DNA of 64,000 nt from Alphaproteobacteria bacterium (GCA_963555825.3 CAUVXB020000001.1:1920001-1984000), one strand, 5' to 3'; counted from the first letter of the stretch, positions 2,868 through 12,454 are shown. The notes: generated by a model from the sequence alone, not told the origin. Numbers and translations: made by a program.

Positions 2868-3470
2868 TCAGGTCAGGAAGGTTGCGACCAACTCCTCGAG
2901 CCGCGCCTTGGCGTCCTCGAGGATAGGCTCTCCATCACCGACGAGCAGCGAATCAAAGTCGAGATCGAGGAGCCGGCGCACGCTCTGCCTTAGGCGCTGT
3001 GGGTCGTCCATCACCTGCTCGCGCAGCAGCCCACAGCTGCCCGGTGGGTTGCCGATCACTGCATCGCCGACGATGAGAAGACGCCTCTCCGGCCAGTGGA
3101 GCGCCACCTCGCCGGACGATTTTCCGGGGACCTCGACCACCACGAGCGGTCCGATGGCCTGCCCCACCGCGAGCGCATCATCCAGCAGGGCGCCCTGGTC
3201 TCGCGCGTGGGGCGCGTCGTCCGGATGAATGGCGGTTCGCGCGCCGGTGCGCTCGCGCACATTGTTGGCTGCGCGCGAATGGTTGCGGTTGGTCACCAAT
3301 ATGCGGGCGACGCCCAAGCGGGCGATCTCATCGAGCCCCTCTTCCCCAGGCTCGACGGGGTCGATGCAGAGGTTGCCTTCGGCGTGCCGGATGAGGTGGC
3401 CGTTGAAGTTGTACCCGTGGGGCTCGGAAAACCACGGCCAGGTGAAGATATCGTTCAAGATTTCCCGCAT
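2868..3470 (-). CDS. Metallo-beta-lactamase-fold protein with degenerate metal motif
   Basis: LCIDP, ILVTNRNHSR, VPGKSSGE, LLIVGDAV, LLVGDGEP align to MBL-fold motifs, with several His replaced. Confidence 0.75.
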   Translation of the reverse strand: MREILNDIFTWPWFSEPHGYNFNGHLIRHAEGNLCIDPVEPGEEGLDEIARLGVARILVTNRNHSRAANNVRERTGARTAIHPDDAPHARDQGALLDDALAVGQAIGPLVVVEVPGKSSGEVALHWPERRLLIVGDAVIGNPPGSCGLLREQVMDDPQRLRQSVRRLLDLDFDSLLVGDGEPILEDAKARLEELVATFLT

Positions 3471-4406: not shown

Positions 4407-6207
4407 GACGGGGCGGTAAAAAGTTGTTGGCCGATGGCGTGCTTGTACAGGTCTTTGCGGTTCGGTGAAGAATATTTGCCTGTCTCCGCGTTGCTGGTGG
4501 ATAAAACCTGATATTACCTACCCTTGGCTTCTCCTTGGCTTCGTTTTTTATGGTGCGATTGCCGCGCAGCGTCGGATATTGAGGCCGAGGGCACGCAGAT
4601 TGACCACGTAGCGCATGGCCGGCATGCCGCGAATGCGTAGGTGAGCCAGGTTCATCTGGTACTTTAATCGCGACATGGTCGCTTCTATGCCGGCCCGCCA
4701 TCTGTAGACGTTGCGGAAGGCATCGCTTTGTTCATAAAGCCGGCGCTTTTGGTTGGCAGCCCTGGCCGGGGTATATTGAAAGCGGGAAAATTGGCCGTCA
4801 CGCTTGGCCGCCTGCACGGGACATCGCAGTATATCGGGACATTTTTGGCAGATGGAGAGGTCGAAACGGGCCTGCAGCTTGGCTTTGGCGAGCGAGGCTG
4901 AAACCGGTTCGACGTTATTGGGACAGCGCAAGACCAAGCCTTCTTCGTTGAGAGTGAAATCCTCCAACGTCAACCGTCCCGAGACGGCGCCTTTCGGCGG
5001 TCGTGCGGGCGCCACGAGATTGATGTTCTGTTCGCGCGTCAGAGCCATGTTGTCACTGGAACCGTAATGTGAATCACCCAGCATCACCGCCGGCGTCAGC
5101 GCGCGCTCGCTCAGATCATCCAGCGCATCGGCTAAGCGATGGCCGTCATGCACCGTCATCTTGTGGACCTCCACGTGGGTGATGAGGTCCGGTGTCGCGG
5201 CAACCGCCTCGTTACTGACATCTTCACAATAGGTTTCGACGATCTGCGCCATGTATCCTTGACCCTTGTGCGCGTTGTAGCTCGCGTCCGGGTCGGCCGG
5301 ATTGCCGACGGTATCGCACGGCACATCCTTTGGATCTCGAATCGCGGCGCGCGTTGCGTCACGATCGCCATACTCATCATCAACGATCTCGAACTGATCG
5401 CGCAGAACCCTCTCCAGGATCGCAAAACTGAAAAGCTTTGCCGCCGCCGTGTCACGGAATTGCAGCACCAGGGCTAGGAGATACTGACCCGCTTCGCCGA
5501 GGCGCCGTTTTGAAACACTCGGCGCCGTATTCGCGAACGCGCCATTACCCTCGCGATCGACATAGCGGCGGATCACCTCCTTGCTGATCTGCTCGTGCAG
5601 ACCGGGATGATATCGCTCAAGCTCACGGGCAAACTTCGAGATGCTCTCAACAACGATACCAAGTCGTGTCAGCGCCCGCATTGCCGAACGAAGGGCCGTC
5701 GAATCCATGCGTTGGTGGCTGGTATCGACAGAGAACCCCTGCACCAGCCGATCCGTCAAACACCGGAACAGCAATTCATCGAGACCTTGTTCGATAAACA
5801 GACGGCGATAGTTGCGCAGGGTTTTCTCACAGAAATAGCTGTCCGCTTCGCTGCGCACGTCCAAGGCATAGTGCCACGCCATATTGAAGGCCAGGGCCTC
5901 GACGGTCTCTGCATCGCTCAGATCGTGCAGCTGCTGCAAAAGCAAGACCCCGATGACAACGTGTAGATCCTTCGATGGTCGGCCCATGCGTTCATCAAGG
6001 TGACGGCAAAGATCGTCAACCGGAAGTTCGACAAGCAGATGGTTCCGAAAAACCCCGGCCCAGGATTGCTCCATCAGGCGCCGACGTTTGTCCCCGAAAT
6101 CGGACCAGCGATCAAACAATTCCCCAGTCCGTCGGTCGCGTAAAGTAAACATGCACAATTATAATCCAGCCGACTCTCATGAGGAATCGACTTTTTACCG
6201 CCCCGTC
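4407..6207 (-). mobile_element. IS1182/IS5-like insertion sequence
   Basis: Perfect 17-bp TIR GACGGGGCGGTAAAAAG (4407-4423) / CTTTTTACCGCCCCGTC (6191-6207); 7-bp direct repeat GAATCTT at 4400-4406 and 6208-6214. Confidence 0.92.
4548..6158 (-). CDS. DDE transposase, IS1182/IS5-like
   Basis: GRPS...LLLQQLHDLSD (DUF772-like), RMDST, DPDAS, GDSHYG, YRWRAGIEATMSRLK. Confidence 0.88.
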   Translation of the reverse strand: MCMFTLRDRRTGELFDRWSDFGDKRRRLMEQSWAGVFRNHLLVELPVDDLCRHLDERMGRPSKDLHVVIGVLLLQQLHDLSDAETVEALAFNMAWHYALDVRSEADSYFCEKTLRNYRRLFIEQGLDELLFRCLTDRLVQGFSVDTSHQRMDSTALRSAMRALTRLGIVVESISKFARELERYHPGLHEQISKEVIRRYVDREGNGAFANTAPSVSKRRLGEAGQYLLALVLQFRDTAAAKLFSFAILERVLRDQFEIVDDEYGDRDATRAAIRDPKDVPCDTVGNPADPDASYNAHKGQGYMAQIVETYCEDVSNEAVAATPDLITHVEVHKMTVHDGHRLADALDDLSERALTPAVMLGDSHYGSSDNMALTREQNINLVAPARPPKGAVSGRLTLEDFTLNEEGLVLRCPNNVEPVSASLAKAKLQARFDLSICQKCPDILRCPVQAAKRDGQFSRFQYTPARAANQKRRLYEQSDAFRNVYRWRAGIEATMSRLKYQMNLAHLRIRGMPAMRYVVNLRALGLNIRRCAAIAP

Positions 6208-6295
6208 GAATCTTGTGTACGGCGTTGAAATGAAGGCGGCGTATCCTGGTGATTGTTGATGTCACCACTTGAGCTAAGCCAAGGAAGGATACGCC

Positions 6296-7540
6296 ATGAA
6301 AGAGAATACCGTTGTTGCTTTTCAAAACCCATCTGATTTTCAGAAAGATCCGTTGACGGAAGTCCTACAAGCTGGAGCTCGCGAGTTGTTGGCCCAAGCC
6401 GTTGAGGCCGAGGTCTCCGTGTTTTTGGGTAGCCATGCGGCGCTTGTTGACGCCGCCGGCCGCCGCCGGGTTGTCCGCAATGGATATCTGCCGGAACGCT
6501 TCATCCAGACCGGGATCGGCCCGGTGAGCGTGCGCCAACCCCGTGTGCGGGACCGGGGGGACGGCGCCATCCGCTTCACGTCGGCGATCCTGCCGCGCTA
6601 TCTGCGCCGCGCCAAGAGCCTGGAAGACCTTTTGCCATGGCTGTATCTGAAGGGCATTTCCACCGGCGACTTCGGGGAAGCCTTGGCGGCGCTCCTGGGG
6701 AGCTCCGCGCCGGGGCTTTCGGCCTCCACGATCACCCGGCTGAAAGAGGTCTGGGGGGTTGAGGCGGAGCGCTGGCAACGGCGCGACCTCACGGCCAAGC
6801 GCTACGTCTATTTCTGGGTGGACGGCATCTATTTCAGCGCCCGCATGGAGGAAGAGAAGCAGTGCATCCTGGTGATCGTCGGGGCCACGGACAAGGGACA
6901 GAAGGAACTGATCGCCATCGCCGACGGCTATCGCGAAAGTGAGCAGTCCTGGCTCGAAGTTCTGCTCGATCTCAAGCGGCGCGGCCTTGAAATGGGTCCG
7001 CAACTGGCGCTCGGCGACGGCGCGCTCGGCTTCTGGAAGGCGCTCCGCCAAGTCTACCCAGGCGCCCGCGAGCAACGCTGCTGGGTTCACAAGACGGGCA
7101 ACGTCTTGAACAAGCTGCCCAAGGGTCTGCAAAAGAAAGCCAAGGGGCGCCTGCAAGACATCTGGATGGCCGAAACCAGGAAGGATGCCGAGAGCGCCTT
7201 CGACTTCTTCCTGGAAGCCTACGGGCCGAAGTACGACAAGGCCGCGGCCTGCCTGGCCAAGGACCGCGACGTCCTGCTGACGTTCTACGACTTCCCCGCC
7301 GAGCACTGGAAGCATGTACGCACGACCAACCCCATCGAGAGCACGTTCGCCACGGTTCGTCTGCGCACCTACCGGACCAAGGGCTGCCTGTCGCGCAAGA
7401 CGGCGATGGCCATGGTCTTCAAACTATGCCAGTGCGCTCAGAGAAAATGGAGAAAACTCGATGGATCGAACCATCTCGCCGAGATCATTCGCGGCGTCAA
7501 ATTCGTAGATGGAGAACGCCAGGATCGCGCCGCCGCATGA
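6296..7540 (+). CDS. IS256-family (Mutator) transposase
   Basis: RNGYLPER, LYLKGISTGDF, YFWVDGIY, GDGALGFW, QRCWVHK, RTTNPIESTF. Confidence 0.96.
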   Translation: MKENTVVAFQNPSDFQKDPLTEVLQAGARELLAQAVEAEVSVFLGSHAALVDAAGRRRVVRNGYLPERFIQTGIGPVSVRQPRVRDRGDGAIRFTSAILPRYLRRAKSLEDLLPWLYLKGISTGDFGEALAALLGSSAPGLSASTITRLKEVWGVEAERWQRRDLTAKRYVYFWVDGIYFSARMEEEKQCILVIVGATDKGQKELIAIADGYRESEQSWLEVLLDLKRRGLEMGPQLALGDGALGFWKALRQVYPGAREQRCWVHKTGNVLNKLPKGLQKKAKGRLQDIWMAETRKDAESAFDFFLEAYGPKYDKAAACLAKDRDVLLTFYDFPAEHWKHVRTTNPIESTFATVRLRTYRTKGCLSRKTAMAMVFKLCQCAQRKWRKLDGSNHLAEIIRGVKFVDGERQDRAAA

Positions 7541-7633
7541 TCAGCCCATACACAACTTTTGACAATAGCTCGTGGAGGATGAGGGGGCAGCCTCTACTGA
7601 TGACAGGTGGCCGCGTCCGCATTAACATTCCAT

Positions 7634-8989
7634 ATGGATATTCGCAACGACGAGCCGACACTTGTCGACCAATTGCGCCGAAAGTCCCTGGTCTCCCAGG
7701 TCGGCCGCGCGGCCGCGATCTGTTCCCCGCCGCAGGTGCTGGGGGTGCATGGCGACTGGGGGCTCGGCAAGACGAGCTTCCTGCAGCAGGTGCAGTACTA
7801 TCTGAGTGGAATCTGCGCCGCCCAGAGCAAACAAGAGCTGGCGAATGCGAGGAACAACGCTCCGCGCATTGATCTCAATCTTCGAGACCGCACCACCGTC
7901 GTCTGGTTCGAGGCATGGCGCTATCAACACGAAGAGAACCCGATCGTCGCCCTGCTCCACGAGATGCGGGGGCAGCTCGAATGGGCGGCCAAGCTCAAAC
8001 GCGGGATCCGCAAAACCGCAGAAGTAGCGTTCCTTGGCACACTAATGTCCATGGAGTCAGTGACCAAGAAAATCGGCCTTCAGGCATCCAAAGTCCGTGA
8101 GGAAGGGGAGCGCTGGGAGCGCGAGAACCTGGCGGTCAGCTTGCCCGCCCACACGATCCGGACGCTCTTGACCGAAGTGATCGGGCAATTGATCGGCCGG
8201 GAGGGTCGGGGTCCAGCCCGGAAACGCCGCCTCGTCGTGATCATCGACGACCTGGACCGCTGCGAGCCGGCAGCCATCGACCGGCTGCTGGAGGGCCTCA
8301 AGCTGTATCTCAGCATCGAGAATTGCGTCTTCATCCTCGGCATGGACCAACGCCAGGTCATCCGAGCCATCGCCGCCATGCAGCCGGAATCCCAGGAAAA
8401 CCAGGACCGCTTGCGTTGGGCTGCGGATTACTTGGAGAAGCTTTGCCAGAACGTCTGGCGGTTGCCGAGCATCGCCGACCCGAAGGACTTCCTTTGCCGG
8501 AAGTTGCCGGCGGGGTCGTTACGCGACAGGGTTGACACGGCGATCGGCGATATCAGGTGCCTGCCGGGTAACCCGCGTCGGCTCACGGGGCTCGCCAACC
8601 TGGTACTACGGCTGGACGGGCGGCAAGGCCCCGAAGGGGATCATATCTACCAGACCCGTCTCATGCTTATCGTTGCCTATGTCTACCAGTTCCATCCCGA
8701 TCTTTATGTACGCTGGCGATACGACCCGGATTTCTTTGAGCTCATTCTGGATTGGGTGAAGGGCACAGGCCAACGTACCGGGCCCTTGGAGAACCTGATA
8801 AGACCGGACAATTACATCGCCGAAGACGAGACACCCACACCGAGGGGCGCCACCGAGGAGGTGCGAAAATTGTATCCGGACCCGTCGGCGAGCAACGTCT
8901 TCTGGATTCAGCGCCTGATCGTCGCAATTATCAAGGACGTCCAATGGGAGCACTTCAAGCCCTACTTCTCCGAACCGGAAGAGAAGTGA
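7634..8989 (+). CDS. KAP-family P-loop NTPase
   Basis: Walker A VLGVHGDWGLGKTSFL, VWFEAWRY, Walker B LVVIIDDLDRC, FILGMD, YLEKL, NPRRL; no obvious transmembrane helices; ATG 7634 chosen over GTG 7607. Confidence 0.9.
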   Translation: MDIRNDEPTLVDQLRRKSLVSQVGRAAAICSPPQVLGVHGDWGLGKTSFLQQVQYYLSGICAAQSKQELANARNNAPRIDLNLRDRTTVVWFEAWRYQHEENPIVALLHEMRGQLEWAAKLKRGIRKTAEVAFLGTLMSMESVTKKIGLQASKVREEGERWERENLAVSLPAHTIRTLLTEVIGQLIGREGRGPARKRRLVVIIDDLDRCEPAAIDRLLEGLKLYLSIENCVFILGMDQRQVIRAIAAMQPESQENQDRLRWAADYLEKLCQNVWRLPSIADPKDFLCRKLPAGSLRDRVDTAIGDIRCLPGNPRRLTGLANLVLRLDGRQGPEGDHIYQTRLMLIVAYVYQFHPDLYVRWRYDPDFFELILDWVKGTGQRTGPLENLIRPDNYIAEDETPTPRGATEEVRKLYPDPSASNVFWIQRLIVAIIKDVQWEHFKPYFSEPEEK

Positions 8990-9146
8990 CCCTAGGCAAT
9001 TGCCAGGCCCCATCGAGCGTGCCGTCTTCCCCCCATGAGCACCCCCGGGGGCGATGGCACGCTTGTGGGCGAGTCGGCCGGGGAAGACCGCCCCGCCCCG
9101 GATTCTCTCCTTCCCCGCGGTCGATGGCGGAGGGACTCAGGGTTCC

Positions 9147-11708
9147 ATGAGCCACGACGACTTCCAGGACCCGTACCAAGACCCGACGTTGGCGGCGTAT
9201 CTGTCGAACGTGATCGACTGGCATGGCTACATCCGCTTCCTGGGCCTCCCCCATCTCCGCGACAACCCGGACATCCGCATCGACCGGCTTTACGTGGAGC
9301 CCAGGCTGGCCGAGCGCCACATCTCCCCCGACTCCGATCCCGACGAGTGGCCTGAAACCCGAACGCTGCACCAGGCGCTGACGGAGCGTCCATCGCTGGT
9401 GGTCCTCGGCGACCCCGGAAGCGGCAAGTCGACGCTCGTGAGTTGGCTCGCCTGGCGCTTCGCCCATGGGCCGGAGAGCGCGTGGACGGAGACGTTCGGG
9501 CGGTTGGTGCCAGTGCCGTTGGTGCTGCGCGAGCTTGAGATCGGCGCGGGGATCGATTGGCGCGGGTTGTGGGCGGCCTTTCTCGACCATGAGATGGCCA
9601 CTCCCCTTCGCAATGCGGGCAACGTCGAAGGGTTCTTGGAGCGCGGCCAAGCGTTGATCCTGTTCGACGGGATCGACGAGATCGGCGGCATTGCAGTTCG
9701 GAAGGCGCTCATGGCGGCGATCCGGGAGGGGGTCGACCTGTATCCGGAGTGCCGATGGCTGTTGACATCGCGGCTTGTCGGCTATGCCGAGGCGCCCCTC
9801 CATCTATTCGACGATGACCGGGAGAATGTCATGCGGGAGGCCGACCTTGGAGACTCGATTTTTGTGTCGAGTCCGGCCGCCGCCTGGTACGTCGCCCCCT
9901 TCACCGACGCCCAGATCGACCACTTCGCCCGCAACTGGTACGCCCAGCGCGAAGCGGCGCCGAAGGTGGCAGCGGAGCAATCGCAAGCCCTGGTGGGCGC
10001 CATCGGCGATGCCACCGCGACGCGACGGCTCGCACGGGTGCCCAACCTGTTGACGATGATGGCGCTGATCTTCCGGGTGCGGGCGCGGCTACCGCACGGG
10101 CGGGCTCTCCTCTACGACGAGATCTGCGAGGCCTACCTGGAATCCATCGATGAGTTCCGGGGTGTCGACCGCCTCGACTATCCCCTTGTGGAGAAAAAAC
10201 GCTGGCTCGCTGCCGTCGGCCTGCGACTGCAACAGCGCCGGGCGGAGCAACAGCAGAACGACGACGAACCGAGGGAAACGCGCGAAATTCTCGTCGAAGG
10301 GTCCGATGTCAAAGCCTGGATCGGCGGGGCCATGGAAAACTCGGGCTATCCCGGCGACGAGGCCGACGCCGCGAAGTTCGTCGACTACATCGGCCGGCGG
10401 AGCGGCCTGCTCCTCCCCCGAGGCGCCGACACCTTCGCGTTCATGCACCTGTCTTTCCAGGAATACTTCGCCGCCTGCGCCCTGGAAGACTCGGTGACTT
10501 CGCCCGGATGGCTGCGCAAGGGCGAGACTGCCGACGGTATTACGAAGGCCACCCTCCAGGCGTGGACGCGCGACACGAAATGGCGGGAAACCTTCATATT
10601 CCTGTTCGAACGCCTGGCGAGCCGCCGCGAGTGGGTGGAAGCCTTGTCCGAAGACCTGTTCGGCGCCGACTTCGAGAACTTGGTGCCTGAAAATGAGAAT
10701 GCCTACTCGGTCGCCGTCCTCGTGACTCTGCTTACAGTCAATCCGCATTCAGGGTTCACGCAGGCGATGCGGGAGGCAGCGATCGAGAAGAGCATCATCG
10801 CCGAGGTGGCCGAGCAGCAAAGGCTGGTTCGGGACAGAGGCAAAGGCGGAAGCTTATTCTGGCAAGCGGTTTCCATTGTCCGAAACGGGTTTTCCACCGA
10901 CTACGAGTGGAGGACGAAGGTTCCGGAACTCATCGCGAACGCGGCCGATGGTGCCGAAGTGTTGGCTCTTGATGGCGCGAGCGGCGTCAAGGATATCTGT
11001 TTTCTTGCTCGCATTTCGACGTTGAAGTCGCTTTCTCTCGACGATACGGCCGTTTCGGATCTGGGGCCGCTCGCTGGGCTGACAAGATTGAAGGTGCTCT
11101 ATCTGAGCCGCACGGCCATTTCGGATCTGGGGCCGCTCGCTGGGTTGACCGGATTGCAGCGGCTCTATCTGGACGGCACGGCCGTTTTGGATCTGGGGCC
11201 GCTCGCTGGGCTGACCGGATTGCAGGTCCTCGACTTCAACGACACCGGCGTTTCGGATCTGGGGCCGCTCGCTGGGCTGACCAAATTGCTAAACCTCGGC
11301 TTAGACAGCACAGACGTTTCGGATGTGGGGCCGCTCGCTGGGCTGACCAAATTGGGGCGCCTCAGGCTCGGCAACACCGGCGTTTCGGATCTGCGGCCGC
11401 TTGCTGGGCTGACCGGATTGTGGAGCCTCAGCCTCGACAACACGGGCGTTTCAGATTTGGGGCCGCTCGCTGGGCTGACCGAATTGTGGAACCTCAGCCT
11501 CGCGAACACTGGCGTTTCGGATCTGAGGCCACTCGCTGGGCTGACCGGATTGCAGCACCTCGACCTCGACAACACCGGCGTTTCCGACCTAAGCCCGTTG
11601 CTACGCCTAGAACGATTGGAATCCTTGTCCCTCCGAAGCACCAACGCCCCCCCCGAGCAAGTCGCAGCCCTTCAAAAATCCGTAGAGATTGACGGTCTCG
11701 GCGCCTAA
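9147..11708 (+). CDS. NACHT NTPase with C-terminal leucine-rich repeats (NLR-like)
   Basis: Walker A LVVLGDPGSGKSTL, PVPLVLREL, Walker B LILFDGIDEI, LLTSR, PNLLTMM, RSGLL, FMHLSFQEYFAA, W-R-E motif, then 22-aa LRRs; alternative start 9054. Confidence 0.92.
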   Translation: MSHDDFQDPYQDPTLAAYLSNVIDWHGYIRFLGLPHLRDNPDIRIDRLYVEPRLAERHISPDSDPDEWPETRTLHQALTERPSLVVLGDPGSGKSTLVSWLAWRFAHGPESAWTETFGRLVPVPLVLRELEIGAGIDWRGLWAAFLDHEMATPLRNAGNVEGFLERGQALILFDGIDEIGGIAVRKALMAAIREGVDLYPECRWLLTSRLVGYAEAPLHLFDDDRENVMREADLGDSIFVSSPAAAWYVAPFTDAQIDHFARNWYAQREAAPKVAAEQSQALVGAIGDATATRRLARVPNLLTMMALIFRVRARLPHGRALLYDEICEAYLESIDEFRGVDRLDYPLVEKKRWLAAVGLRLQQRRAEQQQNDDEPRETREILVEGSDVKAWIGGAMENSGYPGDEADAAKFVDYIGRRSGLLLPRGADTFAFMHLSFQEYFAACALEDSVTSPGWLRKGETADGITKATLQAWTRDTKWRETFIFLFERLASRREWVEALSEDLFGADFENLVPENENAYSVAVLVTLLTVNPHSGFTQAMREAAIEKSIIAEVAEQQRLVRDRGKGGSLFWQAVSIVRNGFSTDYEWRTKVPELIANAADGAEVLALDGASGVKDICFLARISTLKSLSLDDTAVSDLGPLAGLTRLKVLYLSRTAISDLGPLAGLTGLQRLYLDGTAVLDLGPLAGLTGLQVLDFNDTGVSDLGPLAGLTKLLNLGLDSTDVSDVGPLAGLTKLGRLRLGNTGVSDLRPLAGLTGLWSLSLDNTGVSDLGPLAGLTELWNLSLANTGVSDLRPLAGLTGLQHLDLDNTGVSDLSPLLRLERLESLSLRSTNAPPEQVAALQKSVEIDGLGA
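11022..11615 (+). repeat. Nine tandem 66-bp units encoding internalin-like 22-aa LRRs
   Basis: Recurring core GTTTCGGATCTGGGGCCGCTCGCTGGGCTGACC; protein consensus LxxLxLxxTGVSDLGPLAGLTx. Confidence 0.95.
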
Positions 11709-11998: not shown

Positions 11999-12454
11999 AT
12001 GCCCGCCACCGTCCTCATCCTGAACGGCCCCAACCTGAACCTGCTCGGCACGCGCGAGCCGGAGATCTACGGCGACGAATCGCTCGCCGACATCGAGGCG
12101 GCCTGCGCGGCGCACGCCCCGGCGCTCGACCTCGCGGTGAATTTCCGCCAGTCGAACAGCGAGGGCGCCCTCGTCGATTGGGTGCAGGGCGCGCGCGGCA
12201 CGGCGGCCGGGTTGATCGTCAACGCGGGCGGCCTGACGCATTCATCGGTCGCGCTACTGGACGCGCTGCTCGCGGTCGGCCTGCCGGTCGTCGAGGTGCA
12301 TCTGACGAACATTCACCGGCGCGAACCGTTCCGCCATCACTCCTACGTCTCGCAGGGGGCCGTGGGCATGATTTGCGGTTTCGGCGGTCATGGCTATATT
12401 CTGGCGCTCGACGCGCTGGCGCGAATATTGAATGGGGCCAGAGACGACGCATGA
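11999..12454 (+). CDS. aroQ: Type II 3-dehydroquinate dehydratase
   Basis: LNGPNLNLLGTREPEIYG, QSNSEG, EVHLTNIHRREPFRHHS. Confidence 0.97.
   Translation: MPATVLILNGPNLNLLGTREPEIYGDESLADIEAACAAHAPALDLAVNFRQSNSEGALVDWVQGARGTAAGLIVNAGGLTHSSVALLDALLAVGLPVVEVHLTNIHRREPFRHHSYVSQGAVGMICGFGGHGYILALDALARILNGARDDA

Follow-up and report, generated by a model that had tools for sequence, protein, structure and literature searches.

A KAP NTPase and an NLR-like NACHT-LRR protein form a widespread, unnamed and probably defensive two-gene module in bacteria

Why should a bacterium keep a gene for a KAP-family NTPase directly ahead of a gene for an NLR-like protein (NLR, a nucleotide-binding receptor with leucine-rich repeats) that carries no effector of its own? 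The question is raised by a 64,000-nt stretch of DNA from an Alphaproteobacteria bacterium (GCA_963555825.3 CAUVXB020000001.1:1920001-1984000), hereafter the window, whose positions serve as coordinates throughout; the host genome of 6.04 Mb is in two contigs. Two intact, co-oriented open reading frames (ORFs) are found there on the plus strand, at 7607/7634-8989 and 9054/9147-11708. The first encodes a soluble KAP-family P-loop NTPase of 451 residues (7634..8989, +; Pfam KAP_NTPase; alternative GTG start at 7607), and the second an NLR-like protein of 853 residues that combines a NACHT domain with leucine-rich repeats (LRRs) (9147..11708, +; Pfam NACHT and LRR_4; a longer frame opens at 9054). 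Because homologs align from about Met32 of the longer second frame, 9147-11708 is the likely NACHT-LRR gene, and the 157-nt spacer that was read directly between the two genes (8990..9146, +) agrees with the first-pass annotation of this DNA, which had described two co-oriented genes 157 bp apart as a candidate defence system. We conclude that KAP and NACHT-LRR genes form a real, widespread and unnamed two-gene module of the STAND (signal transduction ATPases with numerous domains) and KAP type, which is probably defensive.

The linkage of the two genes was assessed by scanning one genome per species with the KAP alignment, and 80 loci were kept. According to the names in the database records, these loci come from about 11 phyla, covering Pseudomonadota, Acidobacteriota, Planctomycetota, Verrucomicrobiota, Binatia, Hydrogenedentota, Spirochaetia, Actinomycetota, Abditibacteriaceae/Chthonomonadaceae, Desulfobacterota-type lineages, and Myxococcales. 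A NACHT homolog was located immediately downstream of the KAP gene and on the same strand at 79 of the 80 loci, and at the sole locus without such a partner the contig stops 71 nt past the KAP gene. With NACHT starts called by one rule, the KAP stop and the NACHT start overlap by 4 nt in 44 of the 79 pairs and lie within -26 to +21 nt of each other in 72, a pattern typical of translational coupling. Distances among the KAP proteins and among the nucleotide-binding oligomerization domain (NOD) parts of the NACHT proteins, compared as matrices, are correlated at r=0.93, a figure inflated by shared ancestry and reached by none of 999 label permutations. The nearest relatives of the alphaproteobacterial pair come from unrelated phyla; together with the co-divergence, this indicates that the two genes travel and diverge together. 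As judged from sequence, the pairing is not due to chance, and the expectation that the KAP and NACHT-LRR genes would stay adjacent across genomes was borne out.

These data also bear on the possibility that two independent single-gene systems, a PDC-S20-like KAP protein and a bNACHT-like NLR, happen to stand side by side in one island. Both bNACHT and KAP defences do occur as single-gene systems, and the KAP protein matches the PDC-S20 model at E 8.7e-25; however, the match is restricted to the N-terminal half of the protein (profile positions 8-237 of 464) and is thus not full-length, and PDC-S20 is a single-gene candidate, whereas the KAP gene here is followed by a NACHT gene. The term 'PDC-S20' was found in 0 papers in a literature text search. 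Given the near-universal adjacency, the frequent 4-nt overlap, the co-divergence, and a linkage that reaches a sister clade (see below), such a coincidence is highly improbable.

A search of 7 kb to either side of the 79 paired loci gave no conserved third gene or trans-encoded effector; the commonest flanking gene cluster occurs at nine loci, mostly from closely related genomes. Residue conservation was analyzed in alignments A2 and A3, in which 56 of the 79 paired loci and the window give 57 sequences; 18 loci in which the NACHT ORF is cut by a contig end or is shorter than 650 residues were left out, as were L027, L028, L030, L047, and L082 as near-duplicates of L025/L026. Among the 57 full-length partners, the NACHT domain was detected in all (E<=0.001) and LRR_4 in 55. 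Three interrupted pairs, one with the KAP and NACHT genes parted by a 1437-nt gap (L021 11354-12790) and two with the NACHT gene in pieces (L080 11051-14788 and L085 12865-14664), may be decaying copies.

The first protein scored 94.3 bits with Pfam KAP_NTPase against a cut-off of 20. Its Walker A motif GDWGLGKTS (7751..7777, +) is invariant in alignment A1 and nearly invariant in A3, and in its Walker B region DDLDRCE (8246..8266, +; within IIDDLDRCE) the residues D205, D206, D208, R209, and C210 are invariant in the 57 sequences. The protein is considered soluble because none of its 19-residue windows reaches transmembrane-like hydropathy (maximum of 1.26); three of 57 family members reach 1.6. 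The initial description of an apparently soluble KAP NTPase with intact Walker A and B motifs was thus upheld. Transmembrane helices inserted in the NTPase domain are typical of many prokaryotic KAPs, although not universal, whereas the KAP protein studied here is soluble and paired with a NACHT protein. In the structural model (predicted local distance difference test score, pLDDT, of 87.2), the NTPase is accompanied by a low-confidence soluble helical insert, at the position where many KAPs carry membrane helices, and by a confident C-terminal domain. Among solved structures, heptameric RdrA rings of RADAR come nearest, with Cdc6/ORC and clamp-loader ATPases next, and an ESM Atlas search with residues 285-451 returned KAP-like fragments only, with scores of 0.91 or lower. 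Full-length homologs with 45-54% identity number in the hundreds, and 257 clusters at 50% identity (E<=1e-30) were counted among 1.84 billion representatives.

The second protein passed the Pfam NACHT cut-off narrowly (28.1 versus 26.7 bits) and matched LRR_4 at E 3e-31. In its Walker A motif GDPGSGKS (9408..9431, +), D89, P90, G91, G93, and K94 are invariant and G88 is nearly so in the 57 sequences, and in its Walker B motif DGIDE (9666..9680, +) D174, G175, D177, and E178 are invariant. The latter motif fits the Walker B signature D[GAS]hDE, given as that of the NACHT clade in the text available of Kibby et al. (bioRxiv 10.1101/2022.07.19.500537). The winged-helix motif FMHLSFQEYFAA (10440..10475, +) contains the invariant F432 and H434 and the nearly invariant L435-F441 and A443, and the strands and helix modelled at residues 422-450 fit a winged helix. 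Across the 57-sequence family, GDPGxGK, DGxDE, an SR pair, and His434 are invariant or nearly invariant, in line with the first-pass annotation of intact Walker motifs and a winged-helix motif. The AlphaFold model (pLDDT 89.3) found its best Protein Data Bank (PDB) matches in full-length autoinhibited NLRC4 (4kxf, E 6e-21) and NOD2 (5irm).

The LRR domain (10953..11705, +), which is seen both in the model and as a tandem array, consists of 22-residue internalin-type repeats with a variable LxxLxLxx face. Nine regular 22-residue repeats and flanking ones were counted, corresponding to 11 repeat strands over residues 605-849 of the model, close to the about 10 repeats first noted; on the DNA level, a 66-nt unit is repeated in 8.2 copies at 11046-11584. 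The LRR part superimposes on the internalin A LRR with a root-mean-square deviation of 1.3 A in the model. The scaffold of the regular repeats is rigid (xVSDLGPLAGLT), with an entropy near 0 at scaffold positions and of about 2 bits at repeat positions 1, 3, 4, 6, 8, and 9. We take these variable LxxLxLxx positions to be the concave face of the LRR domain, as expected of a ligand-binding surface.

What precedes the NACHT domain was of particular interest for the question of the effector. Eighty-seven residues stand ahead of the P-loop glycine; they are conserved across the NACHT-LRR family and are packed in the model as strands and helices leading into the first NTPase strand, and signatures N-terminal to the NTPase are counted within the NACHT module in the text available of Kibby et al. 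(bioRxiv 10.1101/2022.07.19.500537). We therefore read this N-terminal stretch of ~87 residues as a conserved part of the NACHT module and not as a lost or hidden effector. Of the earlier claim that a short N-terminus marks an effector-less protein, the shortness and the lack of an effector family hold, whereas the stretch itself is part of the module and no domain is missing from it. No effector family was found in the NACHT-LRR protein of the window by Pfam, PADLOC, and NCBIfam, and no nuclease, TIR, SIR2, protease, transmembrane, or adaptor family was found among the 57 full-length NACHT partners scanned, so that the suggested absence of a recognizable effector domain extends to the whole set. 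The hydropathy scan detected no transmembrane-like segment in the NACHT-LRR protein, and no signal peptide was seen by eye in either protein.

Bacterial NACHT proteins protect against phages, and one of them, bNACHT16, carries LRRs and is hyperactivated by NLRC4-type mutations, as described in the text available of Kibby et al. (bioRxiv 10.1101/2022.07.19.500537). Like the bNACHT proteins, the NACHT-LRR protein has a central NACHT domain with the D[GAS]hDE signature and a winged helix with a conserved His, and it shares C-terminal LRRs with bNACHT16. Unlike the tripartite bNACHT architecture, the NACHT-LRR family has C-terminal repeats but no effector domain in its 57 members. Its genes always stand behind, and usually overlap, a KAP gene, whereas bNACHT01 is described as not being in an operon, and the available text of Kibby et al. 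mentions KAP 0 times. All sequence and fold criteria tested thus place the second protein in the NACHT clade, although it lacks the fused effector. The original observation that NACHT plus LRR is the architecture of animal NLRs agrees with the NLRC4/NOD2 fold, although with bNACHT16 this architecture was already known in bacteria.

Does the pair belong to a system that has been named already? PADLOC 2.0 and NCBIfam 20 contain no named system covering the pair, and no description of a KAP-NACHT operon was found in the full-text literature, a search whose coverage does not extend to supplementary clade tables (Kibby et al. Table S1, PMC13581612); the initial impression that this is not a named system therefore stands. 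KAP NTPases in defence are represented by PifA, Qat, Tmn, and EF_KAP. Among them, EF_KAP defends and needs its Walker B motif (PMC13552941), and Tmn raises its ATP turnover on sensing a phage protein (PMC13001434). The KAP protein of the window, with its intact Walker A and B motifs, gave weak to moderate matches to the PifA, QatA, and PDC-S20 models. With the NCBIfam QatA model it scored 93.2 bits against a cut-off of 600, and no Qat partner genes are adjacent, the neighbours being insertion sequence (IS) elements, the NACHT-LRR gene, and aroQ. Judged by cut-offs or by how much of each model is covered, the KAP protein belongs to none of PDC-S20, QatA, and PifA. For the NACHT-LRR protein, the sole PADLOC match was to mad8 (E 0.0094), which does not place it in Avs/AVAST, and NCBIfam EruA gave 24.5 bits against a cut-off of 1000.

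For the KAP protein, the closest structural parallel is RADAR, in which a ring ATPase likewise forms the core of a two-gene system (RdrA with the adenosine deaminase RdrB). The KAP model matched the RdrA rings 8hrb, 8hr8, and 8fnw at E 4e-7 to 5e-5 and TM-scores of 0.43-0.50. However, the sequences are 12-14% identical, RdrA has ~800-850 residues compared to 451 in the KAP protein, the partner here is a NACHT-LRR protein with no deaminase gene, and there is no PADLOC RADAR match.

The KAP-NACHT arrangement is not confined to LRR-bearing receptors. A KAP gene lies directly upstream of more distant NACHT proteins (25-33% identity) at 10 of 24 loci from a phylum sample of 401 genomes, and at least two of the other 14 loci lack the upstream sequence needed to tell. 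Four sister pairs were recovered in full (L119 3439-8209; L120 2430-6967; L121 1963-6455; L122 2169-6847), with KAP proteins of 471-523 residues and NACHT proteins of 1022-1073 residues encoded by genes that overlap by 4 nt or are separated by 7-8 nt. The four sister NACHT proteins have no LRR, no Pfam family in their long C-terminal part, and no PADLOC model match; that part is an unfamiliar sensor domain on the same two-gene chassis. A maximum-likelihood KAP tree was built from 28 rows of A3 (every second one, >400 residues), the four sister KAPs, 24 randomly chosen KAP-LRR fusion proteins, and the fusion copy of the host genome. The NACHT-linked KAPs (28 of the LRR type and 4 sister proteins) were split from the 25 KAP-LRR fusions with 100% support in the Shimodaira-Hasegawa-like approximate likelihood ratio test (SH-aLRT); since the tree is unrooted, this is a split and not a proven clade.

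The KAP-LRR fusions resemble the pair in joining a KAP domain to the same type of 22-residue LRR, with repeats 49% identical to those of the NACHT-LRR protein, but they are single polypeptides without NACHT, and their KAP domains stand on the separate branch of the tree. This family gave 452 matches at E<=1e-20, and nearly all of the matches listed carry KAP and LRR families. The host genome contains one such gene on contig 2 (L005 8692-10970, -), with one frameshift near residue 398; an intact database protein of 748 residues (P0273) is 100% and 98% identical to its first and second pieces, respectively. The contig-2 locus had been considered as an independent pair of KAP and LRR genes, which is ruled out, as it is one frameshifted KAP-LRR fusion gene. 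In another genome (L092), a KAP-LRR homolog is present as a single ORF with its 5' end cut by a transposase gene. Because both KAP-LRR fusions and KAP/NACHT-LRR pairs exist, the link from LRR sensor to KAP NTPase is either direct or made via a NACHT module, with the KAP part constant and the sensor part of the NACHT protein exchanged.

How might the two proteins work together? On balance, we favour the view that the pair is an obligate two-protein module of the STAND/NLR kind, spread horizontally and most likely serving in defence against phages or other invaders. The NACHT-LRR protein would be the receptor: its LRR horseshoe, with the variable concave face, would bind an invader-derived or infection-altered ligand, and the ligand would shift the NACHT module from a closed NLRC4-like state to an open, oligomerizing state. 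The opened receptor would then engage the KAP NTPase, made in fixed proportion, which may act as the constant output or helper partner, probably as an RdrA-like ring, and whose NTP turnover would cause growth arrest of the infected cell or a block of phage replication. We place the output in the KAP protein because it is constant while the C-terminal sensor of the NACHT protein is swapped (LRR versus another domain), and because KAP-only and KAP-LRR proteins exist without any other domain. Architecture and analogy together suggest the direction of signalling, with the NACHT-LRR protein upstream and the KAP protein downstream. A predicted complex of NACHT-LRR residues 1-545 with the KAP protein, both supplied as alignments, scored 0.00, a 'no answer' result that counts neither way.

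In paired NLRs, such as NAIP-NLRC4 and the sensor/helper pairs of plants and animals, a ligand-binding LRR NLR acts with a second, related oligomerizing NTPase. The NACHT-LRR model resembles autoinhibited NLRC4, which would fit such a scheme; however, the second NTPase here is a KAP and not a NACHT protein, there is no CARD-like adaptor, and the interaction is putative. We tentatively suggest that the module may be an ancient 'paired NLR', in which a NACHT-LRR receptor with no effector of its own is firmly coupled to a soluble, ring-forming KAP helper or executor that is antiviral through NTP turnover or another activity, as a prokaryotic counterpart of sensor/helper pairs. If true, the KAP family would have a general role in immune output, with the KAP-LRR fusions as a one-protein form of the system and the operons of KAP with non-LRR NACHT genes as variants with other sensors.

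The same defence module could also be wired in reverse, with the KAP protein as an upstream guard, loader, or chaperone that primes the receptor and the NACHT-LRR oligomer as the executor. The KAP gene is always first in the operon, and the nearest solved KAP fold is that of RdrA, the partner ATPase of the deaminase RdrB in RADAR. RdrA serves there in sensing and regulation and is not known to kill. Moreover, the effector-less bNACHT01 protects alone, according to the text available of Kibby et al. (bioRxiv 10.1101/2022.07.19.500537), and host helpers are known for other STAND proteins, namely, DnaJ for bNACHT25 and EF-Tu for Avs7 (PMC13581612). Reverse wiring nevertheless appears unlikely, given that the NACHT-LRR protein has no domain able to kill or block, that the NACHT-free KAP-LRR fusions imply that an LRR can be coupled to a KAP with no other NTPase, and that it is the KAP protein that stays constant while the NACHT sensor part changes.

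The genomic distribution of the pair is patchy. A search of 40 relatives gave no full-length homolog, and the phylum sample of 401 genomes yielded one close family member in the 400 other genomes. By this distribution, the pair is an accessory, horizontally moving module. The genes adjoining it were compared with PADLOC models at E<=1e-8, using as neighbour sets the ORFs of 150-800 residues from greedy longest-ORF calls, not curated annotation. The 127 immediate neighbours (one on each side) matched 164 PADLOC families, whereas 101 genes at least 5-6 kb away at the same loci matched 16, each by one protein, although such family counts are inflated, as one restriction-modification protein matches many models. 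Matches among the immediate neighbours included mad2 (five proteins), AriA (three proteins), type I/II/III restriction-modification, DpdF, PsyrT, IetA, and PDC-M38A. By this crude measure, the pair clusters with defence genes.

Several points beyond the inflated counts weigh against our preferred reading. Most immediate neighbours are ordinary genes, such as those for Mur ligases, epimerases, and ABC transporters, and searches of plasmids (E<=1e-20) and phages (E<=1e-10) gave no relatives. A defence role is suggested by context and analogy rather than by a recognizable effector activity. No KAP-NACHT fusions were found at E<=1e-30 among proteins of 791-2255 residues, which is weak evidence. 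In this genome, the native promoter may have been lost through the IS element 62 nt upstream, and a 157-nt gap replaces the overlap typical of the family. Finally, the RNA contigs that touch the pair (see below) cover small parts of both genes, with no weight to be given to the uncovered parts, cannot as contigs demonstrate a transcript, and may reflect DNA carry-over.

The ordinary flanking genes and the absence from plasmids and phages would suit a conserved module with a non-immune role, for example regulated cell death in consortia or a signalling switch, built on a eukaryote-like LRR protein, in cell-cell or host interaction. By the names in the database records, the carriers include many uncultured members of complex communities, and the LRRs are of the internalin type, both of which fit such a role as well. 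It is opposed by the lack of transmembrane-like segments and of signal peptides visible by eye in both proteins, by the occurrence of the pair in free-living Pseudomonas putida, Gallionella, Accumulibacter, and Undibacterium, by its patchy distribution with no conserved gene order around it, and by the enrichment of defence models beside it. We therefore regard a non-immune role as rather improbable.

A different question is whether the copy in this genome is active or is a silent or decaying one, cut from its promoter by IS insertion. The pair lies next to two IS elements. The first (4407..6207, -) encodes a DDE transposase (ORF 4548-6158; Pfam DDE_Tnp_1_6, DUF772, and DDE_Tnp_1) and ends in 18-nt inverted repeats (4407-4424 and 6190-6207) that are 100% complementary. 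The second, of the IS256/Mutator family (6207..7572, +; transposase 6296-7540, Pfam Transposase_mut 1.3e-58), ends 62 nt before the KAP ATG and has at least 36 copies with 100% identity in the same genome, sharing query positions 58-1422/1423 of window 6150-7700. These facts, the 157-nt spacer in place of the family-typical overlap, and the frameshift in the other KAP-LRR gene of the genome speak for a silent copy. So does one DNA run of another study, in which the NACHT-LRR gene has gained 2 nt close to its 3' end: the only contig at window position 11646 (depth 74.4) carries this insertion, which would alter the last ~20 codons. On the other hand, both frames are intact with every invariant residue kept, and apart from that insertion in one run, the DNA runs of two further studies gave the same sequence. 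The stretch 7600-7628 resembles a promoter, at a level no better than chance, the scan having found 2 such sites versus 1.0 expected; the same promoter/terminator scan detected no terminator between the KAP and NACHT-LRR genes. Two metatranscriptome runs, both from a single study, gave short, mismatch-free contigs inside both genes at a depth of 2-4, similar to that of aroQ, which hints weakly at expression. Taken together, we consider a silent or decaying copy distinctly unlikely.

Downstream, the island is bounded by the core gene aroQ for type II 3-dehydroquinase (11999..12454, +; Pfam DHquinase_II 2e-56), followed by accB and accC, and the window, which has a high GC content, shows a GC dip across roughly 4-12 kb compared to flanking core genes. 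The setting noted at first, an IS-scarred island beside core aroQ, was thus found with two IS elements on its upstream side. Copies of the IS256-family element occur on both contigs, several of them with the same junction to the neighbouring IS end. The number of identical copies and this shared junction suggest that the element has expanded recently, with preference for a certain target. Farther upstream, the window encodes a 570-residue protein with two nitroreductase-family stretches (1125-2837, -), beside a gene of the metallo-beta-lactamase fold (2868-3470) and a methyltransferase gene (50-991).

The combination of NACHT and LRR in bacteria was already known from bNACHT16, as described in the text available of Kibby et al.; what appears to be new is a STAND/NLR-type system with an obligatory KAP partner that is, as far as sequence comparison can tell, widespread and ancient. 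The usual description of a bacterial NLR-like protein is of a single polypeptide with its own effector, whereas here an effector-free NLR-type receptor is kept with a different NTPase across about 11 phyla. The pair may thus offer a tractable bacterial model for the hand-over of a signal from a STAND receptor to a second NTPase, the step that is key to sensor/helper NLR pairs. It also suggests a possible function for soluble KAP NTPases, a family in which the mechanism of PifA-like exclusion has been puzzling for decades. With its approximately 257 clusters at 50% identity, the KAP subfamily would serve as a marker for unnamed systems missed by current defence finders.

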